Counted from the stretch's first letter, positions 8,834 through 43,853 are shown. The stretch: 64,000 bases of DNA from Verrucomicrobiia bacterium (GCA_963664225.1 OY760937.1:2336001-2400000); one strand, 5' to 3'. Numbers and translations are program-made. Notes: generated from the letters alone by a model not told the origin.

Positions 8834-11157
<2,324 letters not shown>

Positions 11158-15043: not shown

Positions 15044-15241
15044 GTCTCCGAATATTTTGACTCTAAAACAGCGGTCCTGCCAGAATCTGCCGGAGTAAAT
15101 TATGTAATCATTGACTCATATTCCTATTTTGAGTATTCATATTGTTACGCAGCGCAATTTGTAGGTCACAAAAGACGAACCAAAGTTTGAAGGAACAATG
15201 TTTAACCCGCTTGCACACCGGCACTATTCGTCCAAAGGCAT

Positions 15242-16303: not shown

Positions 16304-16488
16304 CCGACTCATGTTGCAGGTTCTTTTGGACGGTCGTAATTATGGTTGGAATGGCGAAACGCATCAAACGACGCGGGCCAAACAATGCGCTTGAGCCTAA
16401 AGACAAGCGCGAGCGCAATGAAGAAGCGCCAAGTAATCCATTGGATTTAGTTAACTTGTCATATATCATTGAGTTTCCTCATTAAATT

Positions 16489-19206: not shown

Positions 19207-19299
19207 AAAATCGTTCGATTCGATGGCGCGTTCATTGTGTATGCCAGCATTCTATCCATCCGACAAGGGATGAAAATAGAATTTTTGTATCCAGTTTGG

Positions 19300-20076
19300 T
19301 CAAGGCTTTGCGATCGTGGAAATCCGGACATCGTCGATGTGGATCCAGTTGTCCGTATCGATCGCGGGATGCCGATACATGCCAAGTTTCAAGTAATGTT
19401 GAACGTCATTGTGCATGTTCGGGCCGTCTGCGGTGAGCGCGGGCTTGGTGAGATCATCCAGAAAGACGGAGGCCTTACCGTCCGAACTTCGCGACCAGCG
19501 AACGACAACCGTGATGTTGTGCCATTTGCCGCGCTCCACAGTGAGGGGGCCAAGATTGCGCGGCTTGGTCGGGCCGTAGCTCAGACCGATGACCAGTCGT
19601 CCGTTCAACTCCGCCAGCCCAATCGCGACCGGAGGACTGCGCGCGGGAAAACCCTTCCAGGTTTCGCCTTTCGCTTTATCCGGCTGGTCATGCCACTGTC
19701 CAATGAGCCACCAGCGGTTCGTGGGGGCGTCGGACGCAAAATCGCTCGGCAGCATGAACCGCCAGGAATAACTGACCGTCTGCCCCAGCTCGTAAGGATA
19801 ATCGACGCTCACCTCCGCGCGAATCCCGTTGTTGACCTTGTTCTGGCCGGGAATGATGTGAAGCCCAAGATACGTGTTCGTCCCTTCGCCACGAACGGCA
19901 ACCGCGTTTGACGAACCCACCTCCAGGTGTGCGTATTGCAGGAGGGCGTCCGGCAGAATGGTCCGCAGATAAGCGAGTTCGTCCTGTCGGGCATCGGCCC
20001 AGGTGCGGGCGCAGAAGGCGGTGAAGAGAAACAGGGCTATCAGGATTTTGTTAGGCATGGGAATGGGGATTGTCAC
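19300..20076 (-). CDS. Secreted polysaccharide lyase-like (heparin lyase I-type) protein
   Basis: RAEV, YSWRFMLP, IGQWH, GKWH and YLKLGMYR. Confidence 0.7.
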   Translation of the reverse strand: MTIPIPMPNKILIALFLFTAFCARTWADARQDELAYLRTILPDALLQYAHLEVGSSNAVAVRGEGTNTYLGLHIIPGQNKVNNGIRAEVSVDYPYELGQTVSYSWRFMLPSDFASDAPTNRWWLIGQWHDQPDKAKGETWKGFPARSPPVAIGLAELNGRLVIGLSYGPTKPRNLGPLTVERGKWHNITVVVRWSRSSDGKASVFLDDLTKPALTADGPNMHNDVQHYLKLGMYRHPAIDTDNWIHIDDVRISTIAKP

Positions 20077-23949: not shown

Positions 23950-26900
23950 TTAGATGCGAGCCGATGGGACGATGGGAGGGGAGGGCCGGTCAAGGCAGTC
24001 ACGAACGACCTTGAGAAGGCGGGATGGAGCGTAGGGTTTGGGCAGGAAATTAACCCCATCGGCCAGTTTGAAATCGCCTTCGACGGCTTCAACGCTGTAA
24101 CCGCTTGAGTAGAGCACCTTAAGGGATGGTTTGTCGGCCTGGCAATGCAGGGCCAGCTCGCGACCGTTCATGCCCTCCGGCATGACCATGTCCGTAAGCA
24201 GCAGGTGGATGTGGTCCTTGTTTTCCCCCCAGACTCCAAGAGCCTGAACGCCGCTCCCGGCCTCCAGGATCCTGTAACCGGCTTGCTTGAGGCAGCGGGT
24301 GGTCAGCACGCGCACCGTGGATTCGTCCTCGACGACGAGCACGGTTTCATGGCCGCCGTTGGGGGCGACAGCGACCGCCTGTTTGATGTCGCCGGAGGCC
24401 GATTCGTCGAGGGCGGGCAGGAACACTTTAAAGCTGGTGCCTTTGTTGACCACGCTCGAAACCTCGATCCAGCCCTGGTGCTGTTTGACAATGCCGTAAA
24501 TGGTGGCCAGGCCCAGACCGGTGCCTTTGCCCAATTCCTTGGTGGTGAAAAACGGCTCGAACAACCGGCTCAAAATGGTCCGGTCCATGCCGCAACCCTC
24601 GTCCGAGACGGACAGACAGACAAAGCGGCCAGGATAGCCATCCGGATGCCTCTGAATCTGTGCCCCATCCACAATGACCAGCTCGGTTTTCAAGGTGAGC
24701 CTGCCCCCCTTGGGCATGGCATCGCGGGCATTGACGGCGAGATTGATGACGACCTGGTCGATCATGCCCGCATCGGCCTTGATGGCCGGCAAACCGAAGC
24801 CGTAATTGAACTCGATGGCGATCTGCTCTCCAAGAAGACGATTGAGCATCCGGGCCAGATTCATGACCGCATCGTTGACATCCATTTGCTTGATCTGGAG
24901 CAATTGGCGGCGGCTGAAGGCCAGCAACTGCCGGGTGAGATTGGCGGCACGGTCGGCTGCGGCGTTGATCTCGCCCATGGCTTCGAGCACATCCGCGCTG
25001 GCGGTTTTCTCGGCCAGTTGCAATGTGGCGTTACCTTTGATGACGGTGAGAATGTTGTTGAAATCATGAGCCACGCCTCCGGCGAGCTGGCCCACCGCCT
25101 CCATTTTCTGGGCCTGCCGGAGCTGCTCCTCGAGTTGTTTGCGGCTGGAAATGTCGCGCACGGCGGCAATGATCCGAACCTGGCCATCGAACTCGCAGCG
25201 CTGAAGGCTCACCTCGGTCCAAAAATGCCGTTGAGCCTTGTCCCTGGCCAGCCATTCGAAATTTTGAGGGCCTTCTTTCAAAGCCTTGCGCAGATGGGCC
25301 TTGGCGGCATCGGCCGTGAATGGGGGCAGCGAAACCACCAGGGATTCCAAACCCAGCTCCCGCGCCTCCTTTAATGTGTAACCGTATAATTTGGCAAACC
25401 GGTGATTGACGTCCAGGATCTCCATTCCATCCGGGCCTTGATGAATCAGCAAGGCGTCGTTGGAGGTGTCGAAGATGGCGCGGTATTTTGTTTCCGAAGT
25501 CCGCAGCGCCTCCTCCACGCGCTTGCGTTCGGTGATGTCCTCCCAGGTCACGAGCACGCCTGTGGTGGCGCCCATGGCGTCCTGCAAGGGAATACGATCC
25601 GTGTCCACCCACATCAATTGCCCCTGGCTGTTGCGCACGGTGTCGATACTGTGGAAGAGGGGCGTGCCGGAGTTCATGACGCGGCGATCGGCGGCGATGG
25701 CGGCCTCGGCCTCCTGGTTGGTCTTGAACAGGTCGTAATCCGTCCTGCCCACCAGATCCCTGGGATCGTTAAATCCCGCAGTCTCGGCCTGGCGCCTATT
25801 GCAGCCGACGATGACGGAATTGCGGTCCTTCCAGAGAACCGCCTGGGGAATGTTGTCGATGATGACCCGCAACATGCGCTCGGACTCGCGCAGCGCGAGT
25901 TCGGATTTTTTTCGTTCGGTGATATCGCGGAAGAAGAGCGTGACCTGGCGCTCACCGGTGCGCACGCCGACCAATTCGTAGCTGCCGGAGATGGTCCCAT
26001 TGCGAAAGTCGAAGACCTCCGTTTCAAACAATTTGCCCGAATTCAACGTGGCGCGCAGGGCTTCGTTGACGGAAGTGTTGGCCAGAGGCGGAAAGGTTTC
26101 GTCCAGAGATTTGCCAATCAGCGGCTCATGATCGCGGCCCTGGATGCGATCGGCCGCGCGATTGGCTCCCTTGAACACGAAGGAATCGTCCTTTGCGAGT
26201 TCGAATTGGTAGGCGCCGAAAGGGGCGGCGTCGATGATCGCCCGCAAGGCCTTTTCGGAATGCGCCAGGGCGTCCTGCGATTTGCGCCGCTCGGTCACAT
26301 CGCGCGCGACGCCCAGAATGCCGGAGGGTTTGCCGGACGAATAGGTGACGCGGGTGTTGATGTCGAGATGGAGCACGCGGCCTGATTTGTCGAAAATATC
26401 CAACTCGAAGGGCGGCACCGTTTCCCCCGAAAAATGCCGTTTCATCACTCCTTTGACCAGGGCCTGATGCTCGGGAACGACGACTTGAAAAACATTGAGC
26501 TGCCGGGCCTCCTGGTCGGTATAGCCGGTGATTTTCTCAGCGGCCTTGTTGATGGAGGTGAAGCGCCCCTCCAAATCGTGCCGGTAAAGCAGGTCGTTGA
26601 CGTTCTCGTAAAGATCCCGATACCCCTCTTCCAGGACGGTCTCGCGTTCGATTTGCTCGCGCAGCAGCACGGTCTGGCGGCGGACCTGGCGGCGCAGGGC
26701 CCAAACCCAGATCATGACCAGCGCTGACAACAGCAGAACCGCCCCCAGGATCGCCAGAACCATCCCGGTGGTCAGCCACGGCATGCGGTCCAGCACGACA
26801 ATGTCGCGAGGACTGCTGACCAGAAGCTCAAAGAAGCGCGGGGTGCGATATTGATCGACCTTCACGGAACAAACGCCGGTGACATCCAGCAGGTTCCCAG

Positions 26901-28134
26901 CGCTGTATTGGGACAAATCAGCCTTTGAAATCGCCGTGTCCAGGACCGCTGAAAAAATCACATTATCCTGGCGCAGCAGAAACTGGGTCCGCTGCGAGCC
27001 GACGATGCAATTTAGAACGCGACCGGATATTCTCACTAACATGCCGTCATAACGGCCGGTCATGGCCTCCTTCGAGCTGACGATGCGAGGCTCCAACGGA
27101 AGCATGTTTGTGTTTACCGCAAAGCGCACGACCGCTTCATCCAACATGGCGCCAAAGGCGCCGCGGGTTGGAAAGGCCAACACCTCCACTGGAGAGCCGT
27201 TGGTCAAAGCCACGACATCACGCGCCTGGACTAATATTCCCCCCGTTGAGTCCTGAAGATAAAACTGATTGGTATTGTTTTGACGGGTGACCTGGCCAAG
27301 AATGGAAAGGCGGCGAACCGGTTCGTTCCGGATATCAAATTGATGAATGGCGGCGATGGTTTTGCGGGGGCCGTTCAAGGTGTTCAAATTGGAACCTTCG
27401 AGGACCTTTATGTGCGAAGGGTCGGACACCCAAAGCTGGCAGCCTGTATTGACTCCCAGGCCATTGACCTCAAGACCTGAAACACCGGAAAGTTCAAGAC
27501 GACAGTCAATCCACTTCTCCAATTGCTCCAAGGTGATGGTGCCATCTGGAATCAGCGCGCGAAAACGGTTGTTCGATGGTCCTTGCAGTTCGAGGACGAA
27601 ATGCCCCAACCGGTCGCCCGCAGAATAAAGGTATCCACTGACGGCTATATACTGGCTGTCGTATTTTCCGCCGGCAAACTCCTCGAATTTGGGATGTGGT
27701 GGAATGGGCCATGGGGTTCTATCCGCGAGCACCTTGAAACTGGAATTGACGAGGTAGCCCTGTGGCGCCAGTTCAGCCCGGACTTCAACCCGGTTGCCAG
27801 TGGCAATCTCCGGCAATTCCCTCAATTCCACATAAATGCCACCGGTCGAGTCCTGGATCATCAGCATCGGCCACAACGGACTATAGTAGGTAACTATCGC
27901 ATCGAGATGGACGAGCCTTTGGTTTGTGACTTCGACAGAGGCCAGTTTCCGAATCTGGGCCACATTGGTCAGAACGAGCCCCGCATTACCGGATGTCTGT
28001 CCGCAAAGCAGGCTGGCGGGCAAAAAACACAAAAGCGCGACAAGAAGGATTCCCAACATGCGTCCGCCGCGCCACGCGTTATGAGAGATCTGCGCCATCA
28101 GGGCAATTGGCGAATCTTGATGTTGCGGAACCAC
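23950..28134 (-). CDS. Hybrid sensor histidine kinase (repeated extracellular domain, 4 PAS, HisKA, HATPase, REC)
   Basis: [26 protein letters not shown] and LLLTDMVMP; repeated QDSTGGI units. Confidence 0.95.
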   Translation of the reverse strand: MVPQHQDSPIALMAQISHNAWRGGRMLGILLVALLCFLPASLLCGQTSGNAGLVLTNVAQIRKLASVEVTNQRLVHLDAIVTYYSPLWPMLMIQDSTGGIYVELRELPEIATGNRVEVRAELAPQGYLVNSSFKVLADRTPWPIPPHPKFEEFAGGKYDSQYIAVSGYLYSAGDRLGHFVLELQGPSNNRFRALIPDGTITLEQLEKWIDCRLELSGVSGLEVNGLGVNTGCQLWVSDPSHIKVLEGSNLNTLNGPRKTIAAIHQFDIRNEPVRRLSILGQVTRQNNTNQFYLQDSTGGILVQARDVVALTNGSPVEVLAFPTRGAFGAMLDEAVVRFAVNTNMLPLEPRIVSSKEAMTGRYDGMLVRISGRVLNCIVGSQRTQFLLRQDNVIFSAVLDTAISKADLSQYSAGNLLDVTGVCSVKVDQYRTPRFFELLVSSPRDIVVLDRMPWLTTGMVLAILGAVLLLSALVMIWVWALRRQVRRQTVLLREQIERETVLEEGYRDLYENVNDLLYRHDLEGRFTSINKAAEKITGYTDQEARQLNVFQVVVPEHQALVKGVMKRHFSGETVPPFELDIFDKSGRVLHLDINTRVTYSSGKPSGILGVARDVTERRKSQDALAHSEKALRAIIDAAPFGAYQFELAKDDSFVFKGANRAADRIQGRDHEPLIGKSLDETFPPLANTSVNEALRATLNSGKLFETEVFDFRNGTISGSYELVGVRTGERQVTLFFRDITERKKSELALRESERMLRVIIDNIPQAVLWKDRNSVIVGCNRRQAETAGFNDPRDLVGRTDYDLFKTNQEAEAAIAADRRVMNSGTPLFHSIDTVRNSQGQLMWVDTDRIPLQDAMGATTGVLVTWEDITERKRVEEALRTSETKYRAIFDTSNDALLIHQGPDGMEILDVNHRFAKLYGYTLKEARELGLESLVVSLPPFTADAAKAHLRKALKEGPQNFEWLARDKAQRHFWTEVSLQRCEFDGQVRIIAAVRDISSRKQLEEQLRQAQKMEAVGQLAGGVAHDFNNILTVIKGNATLQLAEKTASADVLEAMGEINAAADRAANLTRQLLAFSRRQLLQIKQMDVNDAVMNLARMLNRLLGEQIAIEFNYGFGLPAIKADAGMIDQVVINLAVNARDAMPKGGRLTLKTELVIVDGAQIQRHPDGYPGRFVCLSVSDEGCGMDRTILSRLFEPFFTTKELGKGTGLGLATIYGIVKQHQGWIEVSSVVNKGTSFKVFLPALDESASGDIKQAVAVAPNGGHETVLVVEDESTVRVLTTRCLKQAGYRILEAGSGVQALGVWGENKDHIHLLLTDMVMPEGMNGRELALHCQADKPSLKVLYSSGYSVEAVEGDFKLADGVNFLPKPYAPSRLLKVVRDCLDRPSPPIVPSARI

Positions 28135-28802
28135 ACCTCATGGCCGTGGTCCTGAAGAAGAATATGACCGGCACGCTTGCGGCCAAAGAACGAGGTCGTC
28201 TTGAATTTGCTCTTTTCGATCGCGGCCAAGAGTTCAGGGCTGCCCAGGTCATAGGCGAGGACCTGGACGCCGTTGAGCCAATGCCCGACATGGACGCCTT
28301 CCACGCGAATGCGGGTTTCGTTGAATCCGCCCACGGGCTTGAGATGGACGTTGGTGGCTCCCAGCACATCATAAAGACTGGCGGTGCAGCGTTTGGGCCC
28401 CAGTTTGGCCTCCGCGTTGTTCACGTCGTCCAAAATCTGATATTCCGGCCCGATGGCGCCATCCTTCTCCTGAATCAGGTATTTGATGCCGCTGTTGCAA
28501 TTGGTGCTGGCGCGCCATTCGCAGGAAAACTCAAAGTTATCGTACTGTTTGACGGTAATAATATCCTCGCTGCGACTTTTCGGCAGGACATGCAGACAAT
28601 CGTCCTCCACCGCCCAGCTTCTCGCTGGAAAATTCGTTTTGCCCAGGGAATGCCAGCCCTCAGGAGTTTTTCCGTCGAAGAGCGACTGCCATCCGGCTGA
28701 ATCCGCCGCATGGATGGACATGACCAAACCAGCGCATCCGGCAATCATCAGAACGCGACGGGAAAGCGATTGCCATCCCAAAAACAATCTCAGGTGCTTC
28801 AT
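28098..28802 (-). CDS. DUF1080 / 3-keto-disaccharide hydrolase-like protein
   Basis: WQSLFDGKT, NSGIKY, EYQILDD and LQDHGHEVWFRNIKIR. Confidence 0.92.
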   Translation of the reverse strand: MKHLRLFLGWQSLSRRVLMIAGCAGLVMSIHAADSAGWQSLFDGKTPEGWHSLGKTNFPARSWAVEDDCLHVLPKSRSEDIITVKQYDNFEFSCEWRASTNCNSGIKYLIQEKDGAIGPEYQILDDVNNAEAKLGPKRCTASLYDVLGATNVHLKPVGGFNETRIRVEGVHVGHWLNGVQVLAYDLGSPELLAAIEKSKFKTTSFFGRKRAGHILLQDHGHEVWFRNIKIRQLP

Positions 28803-29122
28803 TGGATTTGAATTAAGCGTTTTTTATACCACCTCATTTTCCACGAAGCAAGCATACCCTCTCCACTTCAACAGTTTGAATGCGCTTTCCGAATGTCCGC
28901 AATTTTATCGTTATAACTCCTTAATATCTGAACCTGCCGACAAAAACCTCATTTTCAGTCGCAAACGATTTTCCATCGATCACGCCGACGATGCCGATGG
29001 CGGCGTGGCGCATGGCCCCCTCGAAAGCGCATTGTGCGCGTGGCTGAGGCGCTCCGGGTTTTGACCGGAGCAGATTCACCCGCAGGTGGGTGTGCGCCTC
29101 CGGTCCGAAAAAACGACAAACC

Positions 29123-30322
29123 ATGAAAACTTCCATTCCAACGTGCGCGACGCGTGGACTACGCGCGGACCGCCTGGTCTCCGCCGCCAATCGGTGGCGC
29201 GAGCAATACAATCCCCTGCGTCATTTGACGCTCGATCGGGCCGTGGCCCTGCTGGAGGCTTATCAGCGGGGGGACATGGCCGATGTGCAATGGACCTTTT
29301 ACTGCGTGGAACAGGCCGATCCGGAACTTTGCGCGCTGGTGGAGCGGCGGTCCAGCGCGTTGCTGGCCCTGGACTGGACGATCAAGACCTGCGGGGGCGC
29401 GGATTCCACGCTGGCCCGGGAACAGGTGGCCGCCCTGCGCGAGGCCTACGAAGGGATCGATAATTTTTACGAGGCGATGGATCACCTGGCGCTGGCTGCG
29501 TTCCGGGGCTTCGCCCATCTGGCAAAGAACGGCGACGCGCACGGTGGCATCCGTCACCTCGAAATTCTGGATCAATGGAATGTGGCGCGGGAGGGACTGC
29601 GCGGTCCCTGGAGATACAATCCCGAGGCGCGCCCCGCTCCGTATCGGGCGCTGGACGCGCGGAACACCCTGGACCCGCGCCAGTGGATCATCCGCGAGGT
29701 GAAGCGACCGATCAACCGGATCGGGCTCATCAAATACGCGCGGGCCAATGTGGCGGAAAAGGATTGGGCGGCGTTTGTCGAGATTTACGGTCTGCCGGGC
29801 GCGGTGATCATCGGCCCACCCAACGTGGCCCCGGAGGATGCCCCGCACTACGAAACGCAGGCCGCGCTCGTGGCCGAAGGCGGCAGCGGGTATCTGCCCA
29901 ATGGCGCAGGTGTCCAATTCTTCAGCGGACCGCGGATCACACAGCCCTACCGGGATTACCTGCGCTATTTGTCCGAGCAATTGGTGCTGGCCGGAACGGG
30001 TGGCATTCTCACGATGCTGACGGCCAGCGGCACGGGCACGCTGGCGGGGTCGGTTCACGCCGAGACCTTCCACCAGATCGCCCGCGCCGAGGCCCGCGTC
30101 ATCAGCGAAATCTTTCAAGACCAGTTCGACCGGTATTTGCTCGATGCCGCGTTTCCCGGGCGTCCGCACCTGGCCTATTTCGACCTGGACCCCGGCGAAG
30201 AGAAAAACCAGGAGGCGGTCATCGACCAGGCCGTCAAACTGGCCCAGGCGGGTTACCGCATCGATCCGAACGAATTGAGCGAGAGAACCGGTTTCCGGCT
30301 TTCCGAAAAACAAACCCACTGA
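29123..30322 (+). CDS. Mu gp29-like portal protein (DUF935)
   Basis: R-x(6)-DWTI, KDWAAFVEIYGLP, GTLAGSVHAE and ARVISEIFQDQ patterns; first gene of the head cluster. Confidence 0.82.
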   Translation: MKTSIPTCATRGLRADRLVSAANRWREQYNPLRHLTLDRAVALLEAYQRGDMADVQWTFYCVEQADPELCALVERRSSALLALDWTIKTCGGADSTLAREQVAALREAYEGIDNFYEAMDHLALAAFRGFAHLAKNGDAHGGIRHLEILDQWNVAREGLRGPWRYNPEARPAPYRALDARNTLDPRQWIIREVKRPINRIGLIKYARANVAEKDWAAFVEIYGLPGAVIIGPPNVAPEDAPHYETQAALVAEGGSGYLPNGAGVQFFSGPRITQPYRDYLRYLSEQLVLAGTGGILTMLTASGTGTLAGSVHAETFHQIARAEARVISEIFQDQFDRYLLDAAFPGRPHLAYFDLDPGEEKNQEAVIDQAVKLAQAGYRIDPNELSERTGFRLSEKQTH

Positions 30323-30329
30323 CTCCAAA

Positions 30330-31382
30330 ATGCAAAACACTCCCATGAACAATCTCATTGAAAAAGATGTTTTTGAATTGCCCGCCGACGGCTGGTTTCA
30401 CCTGGCCCCGAGCGGCGAACATATTCACCCCGCGACGGGTGTGACCCAAGTGATCGATGACGCGGCGCTGCAAGCGATCTGCGCACAATTCGAAGCCGCT
30501 TCATCGTTGCCGGGATTCAGCGGCGCGCTGATCGATTACGATCATTTCAGCTATGACCCGCGGCGTCCCAGCGAGGCGGCGGGCTGGATCGTCGCCCTGA
30601 AAGCGGAAACCGGACCGACGCCGCAGCCGGGTCTGTGGGCCAGAATCCGCTGGACGCCCGAGGGCCGGAGCGCCGTTGAAGCCGGGCGCTACCGTTTTCT
30701 CTCGCCGGTCTGGCTGGCGGGGGATTGCGAGACGCTGGATGCGGCGGGGCGCAAACGCCTGCGACCGCTGCGGCTGGATTCGGCCGGGCTGACCAACAAC
30801 CCGAATCTCAAAGACCTTGCGCCGCTCTCCAATCGGAATTCGCCATTCGAGAATCAATTTCACTCCAACATCACCCTTAACAATCAAGACAAGGACTCCA
30901 TGAAAAACATGCAAAACATACATCAGGCATTGGGCTTAAGCCCCGAGGCCGCCGAGGAACAGGCGGTGACGGAAATCGTTCAACTCAAAAACCGCGCCAC
31001 TGCGGCAGAGTCGCGGATTCGCGCGCTGACGGAGGAAAACCAGGCGCTGGCCGCGTTGCGGGCGGACGCCGATCTGGAGCGTTTCCAGAACCGGTTCTCG
31101 CCTGCGGCCCGTGACAAATGGCGCGCGGCGCTTCTGGCCAACCGGCAGGCCACGCTCGAATTGCTCGAGTCGCTGCCGGTTCCCGCCAGCCTCCCAAACA
31201 CACAGGCCCCGCAACACCTGCGCGCGGCCACAAAGACACCCGACAGCCGCCCGCTGGCCAACCGCGCCGCCGAGCAGCGCCAGGCGGTGCTCGAATACAA
31301 GTCGCGGCATCAATGCGGCTGGCAACAGGCCTGGGACGCGCTGCGTTCCCAGACACCCGAACTGTTCAACGGACAACCCTGA
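30330..31382 (+). CDS. Mu gpI-like prohead protease fused to a scaffold domain
   Basis: IDYDH, AAGWI, GLWARIRWT, YRFLSPV and LTNNPNL; helical C-terminal half. Confidence 0.88.
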   Translation: MQNTPMNNLIEKDVFELPADGWFHLAPSGEHIHPATGVTQVIDDAALQAICAQFEAASSLPGFSGALIDYDHFSYDPRRPSEAAGWIVALKAETGPTPQPGLWARIRWTPEGRSAVEAGRYRFLSPVWLAGDCETLDAAGRKRLRPLRLDSAGLTNNPNLKDLAPLSNRNSPFENQFHSNITLNNQDKDSMKNMQNIHQALGLSPEAAEEQAVTEIVQLKNRATAAESRIRALTEENQALAALRADADLERFQNRFSPAARDKWRAALLANRQATLELLESLPVPASLPNTQAPQHLRAATKTPDSRPLANRAAEQRQAVLEYKSRHQCGWQQAWDALRSQTPELFNGQP

Positions 31383-31441
31383 AGTGTCCGCCATTCACAC
31401 GTTTCACAACCCACAACAAAATCAACACCACACAATAAATC

Positions 31442-31840
31442 ATGAATTCCATTGCCCGTGAAAATGCCGTCGTCTCTCTCACTCCCACCGCCGATCACAC
31501 CGGCAAGGAGGGGTATCTCGTCGATGTGGATGCCGCCGAAAAGGCGGCGCTCATCGATGCCACCACCGACCTGCCCTTCGGGATCATCCTCGAAGGCGCA
31601 ACGACCGCCAGCAAGAGCGCCATCGCCGTGGCCGCCGGCGGGTTCAAGGGAACGGTGCGCGTGAAATTGGGCGCAGCCCCGGGAACCGTGAGGGCGGGCG
31701 TCCTTCTGCAAACCAACAACGACGGCACGGTGCGCGCGGATGCCGGAAGCGGCTCGCGCGTGCTGACGGCCCAGGCGCTCGAATCGGGGGCGGCGGGTGA
31801 ACTCATCGAAGCCGTCCTGTTCAAACCAATCAGCCTCTAA
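31442..31840 (+). CDS. Capsid decoration/cement protein (DUF2190-like)
   Basis: 132-aa Ala/Gly-rich protein ending ALESGAAGELIEAVL, between protease and capsid genes. Confidence 0.75.
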   Translation: MNSIARENAVVSLTPTADHTGKEGYLVDVDAAEKAALIDATTDLPFGIILEGATTASKSAIAVAAGGFKGTVRVKLGAAPGTVRAGVLLQTNNDGTVRADAGSGSRVLTAQALESGAAGELIEAVLFKPISL

Positions 31841-31918
31841 AAAACTGGCAACAACTGGCGCGGGGAATTTTTCACCGCGCAAACCAACCATCACTTAAAC
31901 AAAACACTAATCACATTT

Positions 31919-32839
31919 ATGGGAGCAAAAACCACAGCCGCTTATAATCCGACACTGACCAATTACGCCCAGGGCCTTTCGCAGGACCTGGCCAGCGCCA
32001 CGGCCACCTTCCTGGCGCCCATCGTCGAAGTGCCCGCCGGGCTGGGCCGCTACAAGCAGTTCGACGACAAAAACGCATTCCAAATCTACAACACGGAACG
32101 CGCGCTCGGAGGTCCGGCCACGCGCATCCAGTTCAACGCGACCGATCCCTCGTTCGATTGCCGTCCGCAGGCCCTGGAGGTGGGAATCGACGATGCCGAA
32201 TACGACGCGGCGGGCGACAGCGGCGCGGGCCGCATGGAAGAGAGCCGCGTGCGGACGCTGGTGACCTCCGCGACTTTGGCCCACGAGGACAAGGTCATCC
32301 AGGTGGCCAAAACGATCACCGCCGTGGCAGCCAGGGGCAACTGGTCCAACGCCACGATCGATCCGGTGACGGAACTGGATGAGCAGATCGAGGCGATTGC
32401 CAACGCGTGCGGGATGCTGCCCAACCGGATCGTGTTCGGGCTGGGCGCATGGCGCGTGGCGCGGAACAATCCCAAGGTCATCAACCGCATGCCCGCGAAC
32501 GCGGCGGTGGGTGTGGCGCTGCAGCAATTCGCGACCATGCTGCTCAACCCGAACATCGAAATCCGGGTGGGGGTTCTCGCGAAGGATCTCTCGAAATTCG
32601 GCGCGGCCAAGAACGCGGCGAACATCATCGGCGCGGAAGTGTTTCTGTTCGTGGGCCAGGAAGCGCCTTCGGAGTATGATCCGTCATTCATGAAAACCTT
32701 CATGACCCGCTCGGGCGGTGTGGATGCCGTGCGCTCCTACCGCGACGAAAGCGCCCGCAGCACCATTCACGCCGTGGATTGGAGCGAGGATGTGAAAATC
32801 ACCGGCACGGCAGCGGTCCGGCGGTTGACGATTTCCTGA
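31919..32839 (+). CDS. Phage major capsid protein (HK97-type, inferred)
   Basis: NPTLTNYAQG...FLAPIVEV...W-x(5)-DP...PNRIVFG...PSFMKTF; 306 aa at the canonical position. Confidence 0.8.
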   Translation: MGAKTTAAYNPTLTNYAQGLSQDLASATATFLAPIVEVPAGLGRYKQFDDKNAFQIYNTERALGGPATRIQFNATDPSFDCRPQALEVGIDDAEYDAAGDSGAGRMEESRVRTLVTSATLAHEDKVIQVAKTITAVAARGNWSNATIDPVTELDEQIEAIANACGMLPNRIVFGLGAWRVARNNPKVINRMPANAAVGVALQQFATMLLNPNIEIRVGVLAKDLSKFGAAKNAANIIGAEVFLFVGQEAPSEYDPSFMKTFMTRSGGVDAVRSYRDESARSTIHAVDWSEDVKITGTAAVRRLTIS

Positions 32840-32856
32840 ACCGCCGTTCTCACCAC

Positions 32857-32894
32857 GCGGGGGCCGGACCACCGGCCTCCGCATTTTCCCTTTT
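32857..32894 (+). terminator. Hairpin / probable partial terminator after the capsid gene
   Basis: GCGGGGGCCGG-ACCA-CCGGCCTCCGC followed by ATTTTCCCTTTT. Confidence 0.6.
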
Positions 32895-32932
32895 ACTCAA
32901 CCTCTTTGAACTCATTCCCTCGACTGATCCTT

Positions 32933-33742
32933 ATGAAACTATTTTATATGCGTCCACGCCGCCGCATGGCGATGGACATCCTGCCCGAATCGCTGGACTT
33001 TTTCCGGCGAGTCCTCCTTAACGGCGGTACCTTCAGTCCCACCTCAATGAAGGCCACGGACGATTTCGTGCGCGCGCTTTTTGACGCCAATCTTTGGTGG
33101 AAGATTCTCGATATGGGATTGTTTGCCGGCGACCAACTGGCGGCGGCGATGGTCAAACTCAAATACACGACCGGTTCGGGCGTGCTCGTGAACAATAACT
33201 TTGTGGCGGCGGATTACGTGGAACAAGGCGCCAGCGGCGGTTTGCGCGGCGATGGCTCCACGAAATCCCTCAGGACCGGCCTAGCGCAAAACGCGGTGGG
33301 CGCCACCGGCCATGTCGCTTTCTACCTGCGCGAGGATTTTTCCCCCGGTTTTTACGAAGCCCTGGTGGGAGTGTCCGCGGGAGGCGATGATTATTTATTG
33401 ATGCAGGCGGACACGAACCTTCAGGCGCGTTTCGGCCAGACCCAGGCCGCGATGCGCACGGATTTGACCCGCGGTTTCTGGTGCGGCGGGCGCGAGGCCG
33501 ATGGCACGTTGTGCCTCTATAAAAACGGGTTGTTGCAACAGGCCAACGCGGCTCCGGTCACCCCGGCCGGCACGAGCCAGGATTTCCATGTGTTTGCGAA
33601 AAACAATAACGGGGTTCCCGCCAACTATGTCGATCGACGGGGCGGTTTTTATTGCATCGGGCAGGCGTTGACGGCCGCCGATCAAGCCTCCCTGAATGGC
33701 GCGGTGCAGGTTTTTCAACAGGCCCTGAATCGCGCGGTTTAA
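32933..33742 (+). CDS. Putative virion surface protein with a lectin/LamG-like beta-sandwich
   Basis: NNNFVAADY...GLRGDGSTKSLRTG...LYKNG...VFAKNNNG...YCIGQALT...FQQALNR resembles phage surface proteins (recognition only). Confidence 0.55.
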   Translation: MKLFYMRPRRRMAMDILPESLDFFRRVLLNGGTFSPTSMKATDDFVRALFDANLWWKILDMGLFAGDQLAAAMVKLKYTTGSGVLVNNNFVAADYVEQGASGGLRGDGSTKSLRTGLAQNAVGATGHVAFYLREDFSPGFYEALVGVSAGGDDYLLMQADTNLQARFGQTQAAMRTDLTRGFWCGGREADGTLCLYKNGLLQQANAAPVTPAGTSQDFHVFAKNNNGVPANYVDRRGGFYCIGQALTAADQASLNGAVQVFQQALNRAV

Positions 33743-33779
33743 TGGCCGCATTCCAAAACCCAATTCATTCAGCATTCCC

Positions 33780-34073
33780 ATGAACGCACTCATACTCAAC
33801 GAAACGGAAAAAATGCAACTCGACGCGCTCAACGCCACCGCGTCTCCGGACCGGCAATTGGTCACGGCGACCTTGAAGGATGGACGACATGTCCTCAACG
33901 CGGACCTGCTTGCGGACGCCGGGCCCGGAGAGACCTGGAGCCACTACGCGACATTCATTCAAGCCCTCGCACGCGAGGAGCCGCCCCGGGAGGACCTGAT
34001 CACGGCCACCGACCGGCCTGAACTCATCGCCGCCGCCCTGGCGCGGGCGGGTTTGGGACAGCCCGAAGCCTGA
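33780..34073 (+). CDS. Small hypothetical protein, last gene of the head cluster
   Basis: 97-aa co-oriented ORF followed by a terminator. Confidence 0.65.
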   Translation: MNALILNETEKMQLDALNATASPDRQLVTATLKDGRHVLNADLLADAGPGETWSHYATFIQALAREEPPREDLITATDRPELIAAALARAGLGQPEA

Positions 34074-34087
34074 AGAGAAATCCACGC

Positions 34088-34130
34088 AAAAACGGGACCG
34101 GTGAACAGCCACCGGCCCCGTTTATTTGTT
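34088..34130. terminator. Bidirectional intrinsic terminator between the head operon and aroF
   Basis: AAAAA-CGGGACCGGTG...CACCGGCCCCG-TTTATTTGTT between convergent genes. Confidence 0.75.
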
Positions 34131-34150
34131 CCAAAGAGATTGCGCGGAAT

Positions 34151-35164
34151 TTAATCGCGACCCGCGGCGGCGATGAACGGTTTGATTTCCTGCATCAACC
34201 GTTTGAAGGCCTCGAGCGTGACCTGCTGTCCAGCATCGCTCCAGGCCTCGGAGGGATTGTGATGCACCTCGATCAACAACGCGTCCGCGCCAATGGCGAC
34301 GGAGGCCTTGCACATGGCGATGACGAGGTCCGCGCGTCCGACGCCCTGGCTGGGATCGATGACGATCGGGCAGTGGGATTCCTTTTTGACGATGGGCACG
34401 GCGGAGAGGTCGAGCGTATTGCGCGTGTAGGTCTCGAAGGTGCGGATACCGCGCTCGCAGAACATGAGGTTGGCGTTTTCGTTGGACAGGATGTACTCGC
34501 CCGCCAGGAGCCATTCCTCGATACGCATGGCCAGGCCGCGCTTGAGCAGCACGGGCTTGCCGGTTTTGGCGGCGGCGATGAGGAGTTGGAAATTCTGGGC
34601 GTTGCGGGTGCCGATCTGGAGGATGTCCGCATATTCCGCCACCATTTCGGCGTGATCCTGTGAGAGCAATTCCGTGATGATGGGCAGGCCGGTTTCCTTG
34701 CGGGCCTTGGCGAGCATTTTCAAGCCCTTGACACCCAGGCCCTGAAATTCATAGGGGGAGGTGCGCGGTTTGAAAGCCCCGCCGCGCAGGATCGTGGCGC
34801 CGGCCGCCTTCACCGCCTCGGCGGTTTTGATCAACTGCTTCTCGTCCTCGACGGAACAGGGACCGGCCATGACCTGGAACTTCTTGCCGCCAATGACCGC
34901 ACCGCGAACATCGACGGTCGAATCCGCCGGATGGGCTTCGCGGCTGACCAGTTTGTAGCGTTTTTGAACGGGCATGACCGACTCGACCTGCGGCCATGAA
35001 ATGAGGGTCTCGAGGGATTGATGGGTGCGCTCGTCGCCAATGGCGCCCACGACGGTGCGGGAAACACCGCGCATGACGTGGGGCTTGTAACCCAGGCGGT
35101 TGATTTCCTTGAGCACGGCGCTCTCGTCCTTACGCGAAATATTCGGTTTTAATACAATGATCAT
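34151..35164 (-). CDS. aroF: DAHP synthase type I-beta with an N-terminal regulatory domain
   Basis: MAGPCSVE, RGGAFKPRTSPY, LLKRG and CERGIRTFE. Confidence 0.95.
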   Translation of the reverse strand: MIIVLKPNISRKDESAVLKEINRLGYKPHVMRGVSRTVVGAIGDERTHQSLETLISWPQVESVMPVQKRYKLVSREAHPADSTVDVRGAVIGGKKFQVMAGPCSVEDEKQLIKTAEAVKAAGATILRGGAFKPRTSPYEFQGLGVKGLKMLAKARKETGLPIITELLSQDHAEMVAEYADILQIGTRNAQNFQLLIAAAKTGKPVLLKRGLAMRIEEWLLAGEYILSNENANLMFCERGIRTFETYTRNTLDLSAVPIVKKESHCPIVIDPSQGVGRADLVIAMCKASVAIGADALLIEVHHNPSEAWSDAGQQVTLEAFKRLMQEIKPFIAAAGRD

Positions 35165-35211
35165 AACTGTTTTTTGATGCGGTTTGGTTTCGAGCGGCCG
35201 CTTGCGGCCAT

Positions 35212-35244
35212 AAAAAAGGCCGCAAGTGTTTCCACCTGCGGCCT
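35212..35244 (-). terminator. Attenuator terminator upstream of aroF
   Basis: AGGCCGCAGGTG-GAAA-CACTTGCGGCC followed by TTTTTT, about 50 nt before the aroF ATG. Confidence 0.85.
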
Positions 35245-35260
35245 GGCTTCGAAATTGTTT

Positions 35261-35347
35261 TTATCGTAGCCGTACGCGCAGGCAGCCGGGCCAAAAGTAA
35301 AACCCGTATTCAAAAACGCTGCTAAAACGCTCGCGGCTAAGACTCAT
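35261..35347 (-). CDS. Aromatic amino acid leader peptide, 28 aa
   Basis: MSLSRERFSSVFEYGFYFWPGCLRVRLR*, with 4 Phe, 2 Tyr and 1 Trp clustered. Confidence 0.82.
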   Translation of the reverse strand: MSLSRERFSSVFEYGFYFWPGCLRVRLR

Positions 35348-35356
35348 TACGGGGCC

Positions 35357-35385
35357 ACAATAACGATGAGCCGGGGAATTGTCAA
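35357..35385 (-). promoter_or_regulatory. Sigma70 promoter of the leader-aroF transcript
   Basis: TTGACA-17 nt-TATTGT. Confidence 0.7.
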
Positions 35386-35847
35386 TCCCCCGATTTTTTT
35401 GAAAATCAATTCGGGCACATGAAATAATTCTGGAGCGTGTGAAAAAGCAATGCGGTGCGCCGAGTTTTAGCCGACTTTGTGGTAACGACCGAAACAGCGT
35501 GCGGTTCCTGCGGTGCTTCGCAGCCCGATCAGCGCCAACATCCCCATTATTCCGAAGGGATTAAACCTCACAGCACCTCCGTTTCTTCAAAACTTAACCC
35601 GATGGCCTTAATGCGAAAATCGCCCGACTGTGCGATCCCAGCAAGGAAGAACTCCATCACCGGCCAAGCCCGCTTCATAGCTTCATCCAATGTGATTTGA
35701 AAAAACTCGCGATTCTTTTGTGAACCTCGAGATTCGCACGTCCGATCTTCAAGAGGTCGGGAATGCTCAAATTGAATGGAAAATTGATGGATCCTGGGGC
35801 CGTCATATTCGGCATGGGGTCGCGTCGTTGCCGCTGACGGGGGGAGA

Positions 35848-36405
35848 TCATTTATTGTCGGCGTTAAAACCAATACGTCGCCTCGGCGGATCGGGCGGAG
35901 GCGCAAGCAGAGGTTGGAGTTTTGCCCAAATGGCGCGCAAGGCGGAATCGTGTTCCAGCAGTGTCGTGTCAATTTCGGCAAGGCGTTTGAGGATGGTCGC
36001 GTTCGCCACCAGTTGCTCGCGCATTAGCATGAAGGCCCGAACGACAAAGACGCTCATGGCGACAGCTTCGGGACTGTTCAAAACCATCGCTGCCATGATT
36101 GAGCCGTGTTCCGTGAACGCGTAGGGCGGATATTTGGCGTGTCGTCCCTGCTCTAAGATCACATTTTGTGATCTTAAAGCCACACGGCCATCGCTGGTTG
36201 CCGTGCCGGCGTCTTTAAGCGCTGAAAATTCCCCGGCGGAAAGTTGGAAAACAAAATCTTCGGGGAAACGATCGGCGTTGCGCTTGACAGCCTGATTCAG
36301 TCCGCGCGTCTCCACTCCATACAAGTCAGCCAGATCGGGAGCGAGAATTACTTTCTGGCCGCGCAATGTGAAAATAAGCGACTCAATGGGCTTCTTTGGT
36401 TTCAT
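35848..36405 (-). CDS. ORF6N (KilA-N-like) domain protein
   Basis: RGQKVILAPDLADLYGVET...QAVKRNADRFPEDFVFQL...PYAFTEHG...RRRIGF. Confidence 0.9.
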   Translation of the reverse strand: MKPKKPIESLIFTLRGQKVILAPDLADLYGVETRGLNQAVKRNADRFPEDFVFQLSAGEFSALKDAGTATSDGRVALRSQNVILEQGRHAKYPPYAFTEHGSIMAAMVLNSPEAVAMSVFVVRAFMLMREQLVANATILKRLAEIDTTLLEHDSALRAIWAKLQPLLAPPPDPPRRRIGFNADNK

Positions 36406-36580
36406 GGCATTCGTTGGTTGATGTAATTGCACATGCCTGCAATTCGCAACCAGTACAACACAAGGCATTCAATGTTTTTCATCATTCTTAATTACATCAG
36501 TATATCAAGCGTAATAATACCAATAGTTGAACGACGAATCGATTGCGCAGGGCCGCATTGGGACAGTCAGACTGGAGCGG

Positions 36581-39500
36581 CTATGGCACCAGAACCAAAC
36601 GGAAGAAATTTCGAGCGACCGGGGTTTTGACAAGGACGCGCTTCTGGGTGGTGGTGGCGGTGACGTTCGTTTCTGTCTGCCAGGCGACACCGAATTCGAC
36701 CGTGCTTTGGATTCCATACTTTTTTCCCGGCACCGTCTGGAAATAGAGGGCTTTCACATCGGAACCAATGGCGGTTTTGTCCGCATCCACCAGGTCGTTG
36801 GTGCGAGGATCACTTTCAAAAACCAGTTTCGAAGCCGGATTGGTGGGATCAGTTCCCGCCTGCATCTCGGCCAGATTGCTCATGCCGTCATGGTCAGGAT
36901 CATCATTAGCAGCACTGGCGGCAGGAAACAGATCCGGCAATCCCACGATTCTTGCCCATTCGAGATACGAAGGGGTCCATAATGCCGTCGGTTTATCCGC
37001 ATAGGTGGCCCGCCAACCCGTGGTTCCAGCGCGATGATACACCGTCAGGTCCGGGTCATTGACAAACAGGCCGACAGGTTCAGGTTCTGGCGCATTTCCC
37101 TCGAAGTACACACTCGTCAGGCGAGTGCAATAAGCAAACGCCCAGGAGTCAATGCTCGTAACGCTGCGTGGGATCGTGATGGTGGCCAAGTCAGTGCAGG
37201 CAGCGAACGCATAGTCTCCGATATTGACGGTGTGATTGCCTAATGTGACGTTTGTAAGCCCGGTGCAGGACGCAAACGCCGCCCACTCGATGTTTGTAAC
37301 GCTGTTGGGGATCGTGACGCTGGTCAGTCTTGTGCAATAATTGAACACATGAGACAGGATGGTGCTGACGCCATTGCCCATTGTGACAGTGGCCAGGTTG
37401 GTGCAGGATGAAAGTGCAGAGATGCCAATGGTAGTGACGCTGTCAGGGATTGCGATGCCGTTCAGGCTGGTGCAGTTAAAGAACGCATATTCACCGATGC
37501 TGATCACGCTGTTGGGGATCGTGACGCTTGACAGGTTGGTGCAGTAATCAAACGCCCGCGTCCCAATGCTTCTGACGCTGTTGCCAATCGTTACATTGGT
37601 CAGGCTCGCGCAGTTGCTGAATGCATAATCCACAATATTGGTTGCGCTGTCGGGAATCGTATAGCTGCCGGATCGTCCCTCCGGACAAAAAAGGAGCGAT
37701 TGAATGTTCTTGTCGAATAACACTCCACCCACGCTGGCATAAACGGGGTTCAGCACGTCAACGTCCATGGCGGCGAGGCTCCTGCAGCCGGGGAATGCAG
37801 CCCTGCCGATGCTGAGGACGCCACTACCAATCAGGGCGTTGGTGAGGCTGGCGCAGTTATAAAACGCGCCATAACCAATGTTTGTCACGCTGTTGGGGAT
37901 CGTAATGCTGCTCAAGCTAACGCAGTCCTCGAACGCGCCATTCCCAATGGCGACCACGCTGTCAGGAATCGTGATGCCCGACAGGCTGCCGCAGTTTTGA
38001 AACACCTGATACCCGATGCTCATCAGGCTGTCGGGGATTGTGATGGTTGACAGATTGGTGCAATCTGCAAACGTCTGGTTCCCGATGTTGAGGACATTGT
38101 TTCCCATATCGACGCGGGTCAGGTTGCGGCAGCTATTGAAGGCGGCATCGGCTATGTTGGTCACGCTGTTGGGAATCGCATAGCTGCCGGAGCGTCCGCA
38201 CGGAAACTGGATGAGTGTCCTGATGTCCCTATCGAATAACACTCCATCCACGCCGGCAAGAAAAGAGTTGAGCGGATCCACGGTGATATTTGTGAGGCTC
38301 GCACAATTAAGGAGGGCGTGATCCCCAACGCTCCTGACGCTGCCGCCGATCATAATGTTGGTCAGGGCGGTGCAATTAAAGAATGTATAGTCCTTGATGC
38401 CGGGGACGCCGTTGGGAATCGTGACGCTGGTCAGACTGGTGCAGTAATCGAACGCAGCGGATCCGATGTTGGTCACACTATTTGGAATAGTAACGCCGGG
38501 AATGTTGGAGCAGCCATAGAAGGCATCATCCCCGATGCTGGTCACACTGTTGCCGAGCGAGAGATTGGTCATGCTCTCGCAGGAAAAGTACGCATGATCG
38601 CCGATTCTAATCACGCTGTCAGGAAGTATGGCGCTGCTTAGGCGGGTGCAGTATGAGAACGCATTGCTGCCAATGTTCCTGACACTATCGCCGATCGCGG
38701 CGATGGTCAGGCTGCGGCAGTTGTAGAACGCCCAACTCCCGATATTGGTCACACTATCGGGGACCGCAACACTGATCAGGCCGGTGCAATTATAGAACGC
38801 ATTATCCTGAATGTTGTTCACACTGTCACCCATCGTAAGGTGCGCCAGACTGGTGCAGTTAAAGAACGCCCAATTACCAATGTTGGTCACACCATCGGGG
38901 ATCGTGACACTGGTCAGGGCGGGGCGGTTATAGAAGGCATTATCACCGATGCTCCTGACCGGAAGACCGTTGATGGCACTGGGAATGACCACCGCGGTGT
39001 CGGTGCCGGTGTAGCTGGCGATCGTGATCGTGCCGTTGTTCCTGGTGTAAACATAGTCTTTGGGCTGCGGAACGAGGGATGCGCCCACGATGAGGCAGTG
39101 ATTCCCGGCATCCGCCACAACAAGCATTCCCGTGGGATCCACCGCGACGCCGATCGGAAGATTGAACCGCGCGTCGGGTCCAACGCCACTGTTTGTGCCG
39201 GTGACTCCGGGAGTGCCGCCTATGGTGGTCACCACGCCTAGCGTCGTCACTTTGCGGATCACATGGTTGCCTTCATCAGTCACGAATACATTGCCCTGGT
39301 CGTCCACCGCCAGACCGCTGGGGCGGTCAAACCGGGCTGCGCTGCCCGTGCCATCGGCCCATCCGGATGTGGGACTGCCCGCGAGTGTTGTGACCATTCC
39401 TTCCGGTGTCACTTTGCGAATCGCATTGTTGCCCCGATCCCCCACGAAGAGATTTCCCCCGCCGTCCACAGCAACGGCGCTGGGTTTGTCGAACAGGGCC

Positions 39501-43619: not shown

Positions 43620-43853
43620 ATGGCCACTATGGGTTATCCAACTAAAGTCCAGCTCATCCAACGCAAGCAAAGCCAGCAATGGTACATCAACTTCCCCTCC
43701 GCCATCGCCCAGGCCATGGATTTCGACAAGGGAGAGGATGTCCGGTGGACCATTGCCGACAAAGGTCACCTCATTCTCTCGCGCGACCAGGTCCCCCCCA
43801 ACCCGGTCGCTTTAAAAAAAACGCCTCCCTCCTCGACCAAATCGAGGAGCTGA
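43620..43853 (+). CDS. IS OrfA, AbrB/MazE-like DNA-binding domain
   Basis: KVQLIQRKQSQQWYINFPSAIAQAMDFDKGEDVRW fits the swapped-hairpin pattern. Confidence 0.7.
   Translation: MATMGYPTKVQLIQRKQSQQWYINFPSAIAQAMDFDKGEDVRWTIADKGHLILSRDQVPPNPVALKKTPPSSTKSRS

Follow-up and report, generated by a model that had tools for sequence, protein, structure and literature searches.

A 64,000-nt stretch of chromosome from a soil or freshwater Verrucomicrobiota bacterium, hereafter the window (G000:C1:2336001-2400000, within the single 5,783,426-bp contig of genome G000), carries at positions 29090-34073 a compact operon of six intact, co-oriented open reading frames (ORFs), which include genes for a Mu-type phage portal, a head maturation protease and a major capsid protein. 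A TerS-like/TerL terminase module, brought to light by the present analysis, lies 221 kb away in the same genome and is found beside the head genes in one relative. As judged from the sequences, the best explanation is that the head block derives from a Mu-like (BcepMu-type) verrucomicrobial phage or phage satellite, of which it is an immobile remnant that selection maintains and that still functions as a head-assembly operon; a tail-less virus-like capsid is probably still in use by the cell. For the more specific proposal that the two loci constitute a host-retained, immobile head-plus-packaging system making DNA-filled tail-less capsids, the case appears about evenly balanced, and we lean towards regarding the putative particle as a viriform or as GTA-like, i.e., resembling gene transfer agents (GTAs). 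The first-pass annotation of the block had suggested a host-maintained capsid system rather than random debris, and this core proposal is supported by the distribution of the genes, by the selection acting on them and by the soundness of the assembly.

The uninterrupted, co-oriented arrangement of the six ORFs is as originally described, and the first four of them form the core of the block. The first gene (29090-30322, plus strand; GTG start, with the first ATG at 29123) encodes a 410-aa portal of the Mu (DUF935) type, which matches Portal_Mu (PF06074) with an E-value of 2e-37 over model positions 7-335 of 336, and phrog_113 at 1e-26. The second (30330-31382, plus strand) encodes a 350-aa head maturation protease with a scaffold-like C-terminus, of the Mu gpI type: residues 33-254 match Mu-like_Pro (PF10123) at 1e-29 and residues 254-312 match phrog_2976, and there is a further match to phrog_328 at 3e-34. 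The third gene (31442-31840, plus strand) encodes p132, a small, decoration-like or scaffold-like head protein of 132 aa with weak family matches (phrog_673 at 2e-4; a solved 'capsid decoration protein' at an E-value of 0.36). Homologues of p132 are a constant partner of the capsid protein, being encoded directly 5' of the capsid gene in 47 of 74 related loci taken from species genomes. The major capsid protein itself (306 aa; 31919-32839, plus strand) is of the lambda gpE/BcepMu type, with a match to phrog_1005 at 5e-40, and a profile built from 17 homologues matches the solved phage-related structure 3bjq at 4e-24. Its nearest counterparts in cultured phages belong to the Mu-like phages BcepMu, phiE255, RcWaterboi and phiSHP3 (23-28% identity). 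Downstream of this core lie the genes for p278, a lectin-fold protein (32906-33742 from a TTG start, 278 aa, or 32966-33742 from an ATG, 258 aa; plus strand; phrog_17104 at 1e-10), and for p97, the last protein of the operon (33780-34073, plus strand; 97 aa), which is genus-specific and has no match in Pfam, PHROGs, NCBIfam or PADLOC.

The distribution of the block was assessed in 10 species genomes of the family, G000 included, among which G001 belongs to the same genus and G003 and G008 to a second one. Contrary to what would be expected of a strain-specific oddity, the block is present in four of the 10 genomes, spanning the two genera, and in metagenomes. The capsid gene is found in four of the nine other genomes, at 89% identity in G001, 74-76% in G003 and G008, and 46% in G006. 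In G001, G003 and G008, a portal-protease-p132-capsid block is embedded amid host genes; all six genes are present in G001, whereas p278 and p97 are missing from G003 and G008, which carry the four-gene core. The core of G003 lies between genes for a sulfatase-modifying/BNR protein and a hybrid kinase, that of G008 is followed by a response-regulator gene and a terminase module, and the block of G001 is followed by genes for an alcohol dehydrogenase and a kinase. Window positions 28096-34042 have a colinear counterpart in the metagenome contig L103 (86% nucleotide identity), including the DUF1080 gene upstream of the operon and the start of a kinase gene. A large protein database contains 15 clusters with capsid identities of 74-98% and over 100 with identities of 53-62%. 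The closest homologues (74-98%) sit in the same head-only blocks. In the G008 assembly, a short G-rich repeat array (units of about 7 and about 14 nt; L008, G008:C43, 1-165) stands directly 5' of the portal gene at the start of the contig and may explain the assembly break there.

In a quick maximum-likelihood tree of 72 capsid sequences, which leaves the sister group and the deep branching unresolved, the proteins from the window, L103, G001, G008 and G003 form one clade with maximal support (Shimodaira-Hasegawa-like approximate likelihood-ratio test, SH-aLRT, 100), and the branching within it follows the two genera. Between G000 and G001, the capsid protein is 89% identical and the product of aroF, the host gene downstream of the operon, 84%. 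Together with the gradient of TerL identities described below, the tree fits vertical descent, albeit in a small sample. G006, which falls in another clade of the capsid tree, presents a different situation: its homologues of the capsid protein and p132 are encoded in an 11.5-kb island (L010, G006:C323, about 5400-16960) inserted between host genes that are adjacent in G000 (at 5.745 Mb), in the company of repressor-like and excisionase-like genes and of a match to 'minor head protein/DNA pilot'. Neither the portal query nor PF06074 (the control of which was silent) revealed a portal in G006, and searches for homologues of the protease in the 20-kb locus and of TerL in the genome gave no match.

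Terminase genes had been reported as cleanly absent, which holds for the head locus but not for the genome as a whole. The G000 TerL gene (C1:2142587-2144284), 221 kb from the portal gene, belongs to a TerS-like/TerL module spanning C1:2142587-2146459. It was traced via G008, where a terminase-matching gene, convergent with the head genes and 1.5 kb away from them, lies behind the response-regulator gene; the two proteins are 63% identical. The G000 protein matches Terminase_6N, as the sole such match in the genome, and four terminase PHROGs. Each of the 35 columns with 90% or greater conservation in 23 relatives is retained, among them the DE of what we take to be a Walker B-like segment and three acidic positions that presumably lie in the nuclease half. 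Four small genes, for T_194, T_85, T_153 and T_304, lie 5' of the TerL gene. T_194 has a helix-turn-helix (HTH) match and occupies the position typical of TerS, the two features from which its putative assignment as TerS is drawn, and T_153 is a coiled-coil protein with a weak DUF2730 match. Related phage-like loci also encode homologues of T_85 and T_194 5' of TerL. All three other carriers of the block possess TerL, and in G001 the five terminase genes recur in unchanged order, on a contig separate from that of the head genes. Relative to the G000 protein, TerL is 70% identical within the genus, 64% in the second one and 57-60% in genomes from two other families. Neither the terminase locus nor the head locus contains an integrase gene, a replication gene, an att repeat or a tRNA gene. 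The terminase locus is bracketed by two genes for group II intron reverse transcriptases/maturases (L012, G000:C1:2131000-2150999, positions 3639-5150 and 18317-19918), and directly 3' of the TerL gene there are five tandem PEP-CTERM protein genes in a low-GC stretch.

Ratios of nonsynonymous to synonymous substitution rates (dN/dS) were calculated with a Nei-Gojobori script on tblastn alignments, relying on the pairs G000-L103 (dS 0.30-0.59) and G008-G003 and not on distant pairs, which are near saturation. For G000-L103 and G008-G003, respectively, the values are 0.08 and 0.20 for the portal, 0.11 and 0.36 for the protease, 0.10 and 0.44 for p132, and 0.036 and 0.125 for the capsid protein. 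The two genes that are absent from G008 and G003 yield 0.17 (p278) and 0.23 (p97) for G000-L103, and TerL 0.13 for G008-G003. Host genes provide baselines of 0.17 (DUF1080, G000-L103) and 0.10 (aroF, G000-G001), so that the operon values are within or near the host-gene range and the operon is under purifying selection. The possibility that the closest homologues reside in complete prophages and evolve with a dN/dS near 1 is accordingly not borne out, the homologues being in head-only blocks and the values ranging from 0.04 to 0.44. Between G000 and L103, the capsid protein is 98% identical, compared with 79% for the neighbouring host protein. The four core ORFs are open in all four carriers from the two genera despite protein identities of 47-76%. 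Positions that are at least 90% conserved in relatives are likewise kept (34 of 35 in the portal, nine of nine in the protease, five of five in p132 and 41 of 43 in the capsid protein). The portals of the G000 clade (399-441 aa) lack a C-terminal extension that has a median length of 129 aa in 23 relatives and that, in the element L046, matches head-morphogenesis (gpF-type) families. The short portal is a derived trait common to the whole G000 clade.

Plus-strand ORFs of the 74 related loci were clustered, and the recurrent families were used as queries against G000. With tblastn, matches were confined to the portal, protease, p132, capsid protein, TerL, T_85 and T_194, apart from marginal ones for an alternative portal family (7e-4) and for a methylase cargo family (6e-5). 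Hidden Markov models (HMMs) of 36 families, run against all six-frame ORFs of G000, recovered the same seven and the methylase family (3e-7). The gp36-type adaptor family, found in 17 loci, a family of about 315 aa and the other post-capsid families of the relatives have no match in G000, and neither do the Pfam families for tape-measure, sheath, HK97-capsid, TerL_ATPase and Phage_portal proteins (PF10145, PF04984, PF05065, PF03354 and PF04860), for which the positive controls matched. Whole-genome searches with phrog_195 gave no match, the control being silent everywhere, and those with the transposase family PF02914 gave none in G000 and G001, its control being silent in all 14 control genomes, so that neither blank counts as evidence of absence. 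No match to PF04233, indicative of a gpF-type protein, was found among the six operon proteins. At the locus, gpF is absent, as had been noted, and the absence of connectors and tail genes extends to the genome, as surveyed by tblastn, HMMs and Pfam: in the whole of G000, neither tail nor connector nor lysis genes came to light, nor was a resident helper prophage detected. On this evidence, the head and packaging genes appear to be the only recognizable phage structural machinery in the genome, although tail genes of an unrelated type are possible.

Because the genome is a single contig and two contigs from public runs (10,181 and 10,193 nt) span window positions 26000-34712, including both junctions, with no differences, a misassembly is unlikely, and so is the loss of the remainder of a prophage by misassembly; the runs may be the genome's own samples. 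The window is otherwise ordinary chromosome, with gyrA/B, ATP synthase, GAPDH, feoAB, glnE and carB genes, and the GC content at third codon positions of the six operon genes (0.70-0.81) is the same as that of the neighbouring host genes. No integrase was found among the 41 other window ORFs scanned and no tRNA gene in the window. Flanking direct or inverted repeats do not rise above the short matches that occur throughout the region; att repeats are absent, and no terminal repeats were seen.

Taken at face value, these genes suggest the following sequence of events. The portal would nucleate a procapsid of the capsid protein assembled on the protease/scaffold fusion, the protease would then remove the scaffold, and p132 would decorate the shell or help to shape it, with p278 and p97 being added in this genus. 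The remote TerS-like/TerL module would most likely package DNA through the portal, yielding DNA-filled capsids without a tail. We infer in this way that head and terminase cooperate and that particles form and package DNA, as well as any benefit to the host. The region upstream of the portal gene (28977-29058, plus strand) contains conserved non-coding blocks that are candidates for a promoter, an operator or a leader: a 27-nt block (28977-29003) is identical in L103, where the surrounding sequence has diverged, and a 9-nt core (29034-29042) also lies 5' of the portal gene in G003 and G008. Each of the conserved blocks occurs once in the G000 genome. The capsid gene is followed by a stem-loop with a U-rich run (32857-32882, plus strand; a stem of 11 pairs, including 10 G-C pairs, in a region that folds with -27.6 kcal/mol), predicted to be a likely partial terminator or attenuator, which would probably allow the four core genes to outexpress the last two. 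A second hairpin (34088-34128), bordered by an A-run and, opposite, by a T-run, separates the p97 gene from the convergent aroF; the region folds with -31.2 kcal/mol (plus strand) or -40.2 kcal/mol (minus strand), and the hairpin is predicted to work as a bidirectional terminator. The spacers are A/C-rich, with an A+C content of 0.58-0.86; four of the five intra-operon spacers have a G content of 0-0.14, and the fifth, between the capsid gene and p278, one of 0.20. The hairpins, the spacers and the DUF1080/aroF flanks all agree with the first-pass annotation. No Rfam match was obtained for window positions 28000-36800.

The two genus-level additions differ in how widely they are represented. 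The domain of p278 belongs to a family with 2042 representative proteins (E-values up to 0.001), occurring as stand-alone proteins of about 265 aa or as up to seven tandem copies in giant proteins. Its language-model neighbours are viral clusters, four of 44 aligned homologues have a Laminin_G_3 match, and tblastn against cultured phages gave no match. An alignment-based AlphaFold2 model with a mean predicted local distance difference test (pLDDT) score of 96.6, preferred over a single-sequence fold with a pLDDT of 34, has two helices at the N-terminus, followed by a jelly-roll sandwich and a helix at the C-terminus. The modelled fold resembles the concanavalin-A-like lectin domains of many unrelated proteins (7-15% identity), including receptor-binding fragments of clostridial neurotoxins, lectin domains of trans-sialidases and a GH43 arabinanase, so that p278 is best described as having a predicted generic carbohydrate-binding fold and nothing beyond. 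Within the blocks, p278 is restricted to the version found in this genus. The same is true of p97, which is conserved in G001 (56% identity over 63 aa) and L103 (82%) and has no relatives outside the genus. A bolder and tentative extension of the two-locus proposal, which we regard as possible rather than probable, is that the system is a head-side counterpart of tailocins, that is, a non-mobile chromosomal capsid and packaging motor encoded at two unlinked loci and kept for the lineage's own use. Lectin-decorated tail-less capsids might then deliver or export DNA, for example through binding of p278 to cell-surface glycans; alternatively, the capsids might trap the genomes of infecting Mu-like phages. 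If true, this would be a class of viriforms so far undescribed.

Several observations weigh against a system retained by the host. The block is missing from five of the nine other family genomes, four of which are only 75-87% complete, and the argument for vertical descent is based on a five-row clade and identity gradients, synteny being limited to G000 and L103. The locus is not fixed, given that the flanks of the block differ in G001, G003 and G008. A fixed location across the genus was considered but finds no support beyond G000 and L103: aroF of G001 lies near BPD_transp and orf169 genes, with no kinase, DUF1080 or head genes between. The histidine kinase gene adjacent to the block likewise failed as a marker of synteny or regulation, since the kinases seemed orthologous by forward best hits only and the reciprocal search spoke against it, with a reciprocal rank of third in G001 and behind six others in G003. 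PAS hybrid histidine kinases have 25-35 paralogues in each of G001, G003 and G008 (E-values up to 1e-60), some with in-frame stops, which makes adjacency to a kinase gene a poor synteny marker in this family. The block-adjacent kinases thus not being orthologues, and the aroF region of G001 being free of the block, either the block has moved or the genomes have been rearranged.

Other points concern the coherence of the two loci. The genomes G019 and G022, from other families, keep TerS/TerL modules 57-60% identical to that of G000 (L027 of G022, 9905-11407; L028 of G019, 9401-11809) without a portal or capsid protein of this family; the portal searches had working positive controls, except that of the whole genome with PF06074, the control of which was silent. 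These orphan modules have host-type flanks (pilin-like, response regulator/sigma-like and epimerase genes), and the two genomes are 96-97% complete. In addition, G008 has a second, lone and intact-looking Mu-type portal gene (L133, G008:C4, 10310-12501, minus strand; 42% identity) beside a 186-aa protease fragment and with no capsid or terminase gene nearby, a case of real decay in a genome that keeps an intact block. The orphan terminases and the lone portal indicate that single intact pieces can persist alone. A shared promoter of the head and terminase operons was sought in four head and four terminase upstream regions and rejected: the best 16-mer scored 48, whereas 30 shuffles averaged 46.1 and reached as high as 49, so that no common motif rises above chance. 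Head-closure and adaptor proteins, normally needed by a DNA-filled head, were not found in G000. Furthermore, a dN/dS below 1 is also expected if the block recently belonged to an active phage or satellite.

More distant relatives of the block fall into three kinds. The first comprises complete Mu-like, siphophage-like clusters, with the order TerL, portal (517-616 aa), protease, p132, capsid, Mu gp36-type adaptor and recurrent families that include a protein of about 816 aa. The second, centred on the Opitutaceae, is characterized by near-identical capsid proteins in differently labelled hosts and several copies per genome, with contigs that break inside the capsid gene. Six loci of this kind (L038, L040, L041, L045, L046 and L048:1-20897), at 53-54% capsid identity, all display the order TerL-portal-protease-p132-capsid. 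A gene for an AAA_25 helicase lies upstream in L045, L046 and L048. Variable, defence-type cargo follows the capsid gene in L038, L040, L041 and L048 and consists of methylases, AAA_15/21 ATPases, SNF2/ResIII helicases, DUF4007 with PAPS reductase, and a Z1 domain; in these four elements, no tail families were found after the capsid gene. We consider the Opitutaceae-type elements candidate capsid-forming phage satellites of Verrucomicrobiota, their layout being similar to that described for such satellites (PMC10085698). In the third kind, one or two 123-aa genes and a gene for a Laminin_G_3 protein of about 544 aa come after the capsid gene, in some cases with an adaptor gene between.

The second kind of relative informs the main alternative to retention of the block by the host, which we consider unlikely, namely that the block descends from a tail-less element similar to those phage-inducible chromosomal islands that form capsids (cf-PICIs) and is an immobilized satellite that, upon infection by a related Mu-like siphophage, makes its own heads and fills them with DNA by means of its own terminase, while the adaptor and tails of the helper complete the particle. 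Under this scenario, the clean absence of tails needs no precise deletion, given that the ancestor may never have had them, and cf-PICIs, as reported, carry their own capsid genes and steal only tails (PMC10085698). The relatives at 53-54% capsid identity indeed appear satellite-like, being multi-copy and near-identical across hosts, and complete Mu-like prophages with a gp36-type adaptor and tails, which could serve as helpers, exist in the phylum. However, the island genes of cf-PICIs (integrase, regulator, primase-replicase, adaptor and connector) were not found here, and two loci 221 kb apart cannot be packaged and spread as a unit. Moreover, the G000 clade is not placed beside the satellite-like clade in the capsid tree, in which the deep branching is unresolved, and, as aforementioned, G000 has no detectable helper.

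Less plausible still is an inert remnant of a prophage or satellite that has not yet decayed and has no present function. This is the default explanation for phage genes without tail genes, lysis genes or an integrase, and it accommodates the orphan pieces in relatives (TerS/TerL in G019 and G022, the portal in G008) as well as the lack of the block in half of the family genomes. By contrast, the four core genes have remained intact in four of four carriers although synonymous sites are near saturation, and the low dN/dS values in both unsaturated pairs, the retention of family-conserved residues and a capsid protein more conserved than its host neighbour all argue against inertness. We assign a marginally lower probability to anti-phage interference, whereby the procapsid and terminase would package or cut the DNA of Mu-like phages in dead-end heads, or soak up phage parts, thereby protecting the population. 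Such a function would confer a direct selective benefit and make a tail unnecessary, the phylum harbours related phages and satellite-like elements whose head proteins are compatible, and satellites have been reported to interfere with their helper phages (PMC10085698). Nonetheless, PADLOC, like NCBIfam, yielded nothing meaningful for the 11 head and terminase proteins (T_153 alone has weak matches, with E-values of 3e-4 or worse, read as coiled-coil noise), and there are no adjacent defence genes except for a candidate PDC-S05-type gene 1.7 kb away, beyond aroF. A DNA-free nanocompartment or decoy shell, the proteinaceous compartment of the first-pass annotation, would suit a phage-shell-type capsid protein without tail and connector genes but is highly improbable because a portal, a protease and a conserved terminase under selection (TerL dN/dS 0.13) accompany the shell genes in all four carriers, whereas encapsulins have no portal, protease or terminase, and because the operon contains no gene for a cargo-type enzyme.

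Turning to the immediate surroundings, the operon is preceded by a DUF1080/3-keto-disaccharide hydrolase gene (28098-28802, minus strand) and followed by the DAHP synthase gene aroF (34151-35164, minus strand). Beyond aroF, a gene for an ORF6N/Rha-like DNA-binding protein (35848-36468, minus strand) matches the PADLOC candidate defence family PDC-S05 at 6e-42 and lies in a stretch of lower GC content (about 52%) between aroF and the gene for a 1229-aa NHL/BspA-LRR protein. Genes for insertion sequence-type DDE transposases (DDE_Tnp_1 and DDE_5; 11723-13360 and 43679-45256) are at least 9.6 kb from the operon (about 10 and 16 kb).

Comparison with known systems shows that the block fails as a complete Mu-like prophage, as a cf-PICI, as an encapsulin and, having no tail, as a classical GTA. 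It shares with the Mu-like phages Mu, BcepMu, phiE255 and RcWaterboi the Portal_Mu protein, the gpI-type protease/scaffold, the capsid protein and the order portal-protease-small protein-capsid. Unlike in these phages, no gpF-type domain or gene, gp36-type adaptor or tail was found, and the terminase is unlinked from the portal instead of being encoded immediately 5' of it, as in a complete prophage. Similar to cf-PICIs, the system has its own TerS (here, the TerS-like protein), TerL, portal, protease and capsid protein but no tails or holins. As described, however, cf-PICIs form unbroken mobile islands of about 14 kb, which encode an integrase, a regulator and a primase-replicase together with a head-tail adaptor and connector of their own, and have been reported from Proteobacteria and Firmicutes (PMC10085698), whereas here none of these genes was found, the parts are 221 kb apart and the host belongs to the Verrucomicrobiota. 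The multi-copy relatives, if confirmed, would extend capsid-forming satellites beyond the two phyla named in that account. Other satellites have been described that have no capsid genes (PMC9618062). Encapsulins, in which a shell protein is associated with cargo enzymes, differ in that a portal, a protease and a terminase are all present here.

The closest parallels are with domesticated elements. Known GTAs encode tails and head-tail connectors and have HK97-type heads; they are defined by packaging random host DNA, in pieces that cannot hold their own genes, by host control of their production and by gene transfer. The system described here resembles GTAs and viriforms, such as RcGTA of Rhodobacter capsulatus and the multi-locus GTAs, in that its structural and packaging genes derive from a phage, are chromosomal and are accompanied by no genes for integration or replication, in occupying more than one locus, in its apparent inheritance with the host and in being under purifying selection, yet its locus is not syntenic across species. 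It differs from GTAs in that no tail, connector or lysis gene was found and in its head of the Mu/lambda gpE type. The split gene transfer agent proposed in the first-pass annotation is therefore upheld in one respect: among the options considered there, a split system fits best, because a matching TerS-like/TerL module lies 221 kb away, whereas the assignment to GTAs as such is putative. In Thaumarchaeota, Krupovic et al. (2019) have described morphogenesis modules derived from Caudovirales that lack att sites and replication genes, and have proposed a GTA-like domestication for them (PMC6563490). These immobilized elements are comparable in organization, but they are archaeal, unrelated in sequence and of the head-tail type, and no split terminase or tail-less state is described in the excerpted text of that report. 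A literature search covering titles and the openings of abstracts retrieved no GTA or head-only system from Verrucomicrobiota, a phylum with few studied phages. Domesticated phage parts are known as tails (tailocins), complete particles (GTAs) and bare shells (encapsulins). A tail-less head with its motor, encoded at two loci and preserved by selection, falls outside these categories and, if particles form, would offer a tractable case for studying what use a cell makes of a DNA-filled capsid unable to inject.

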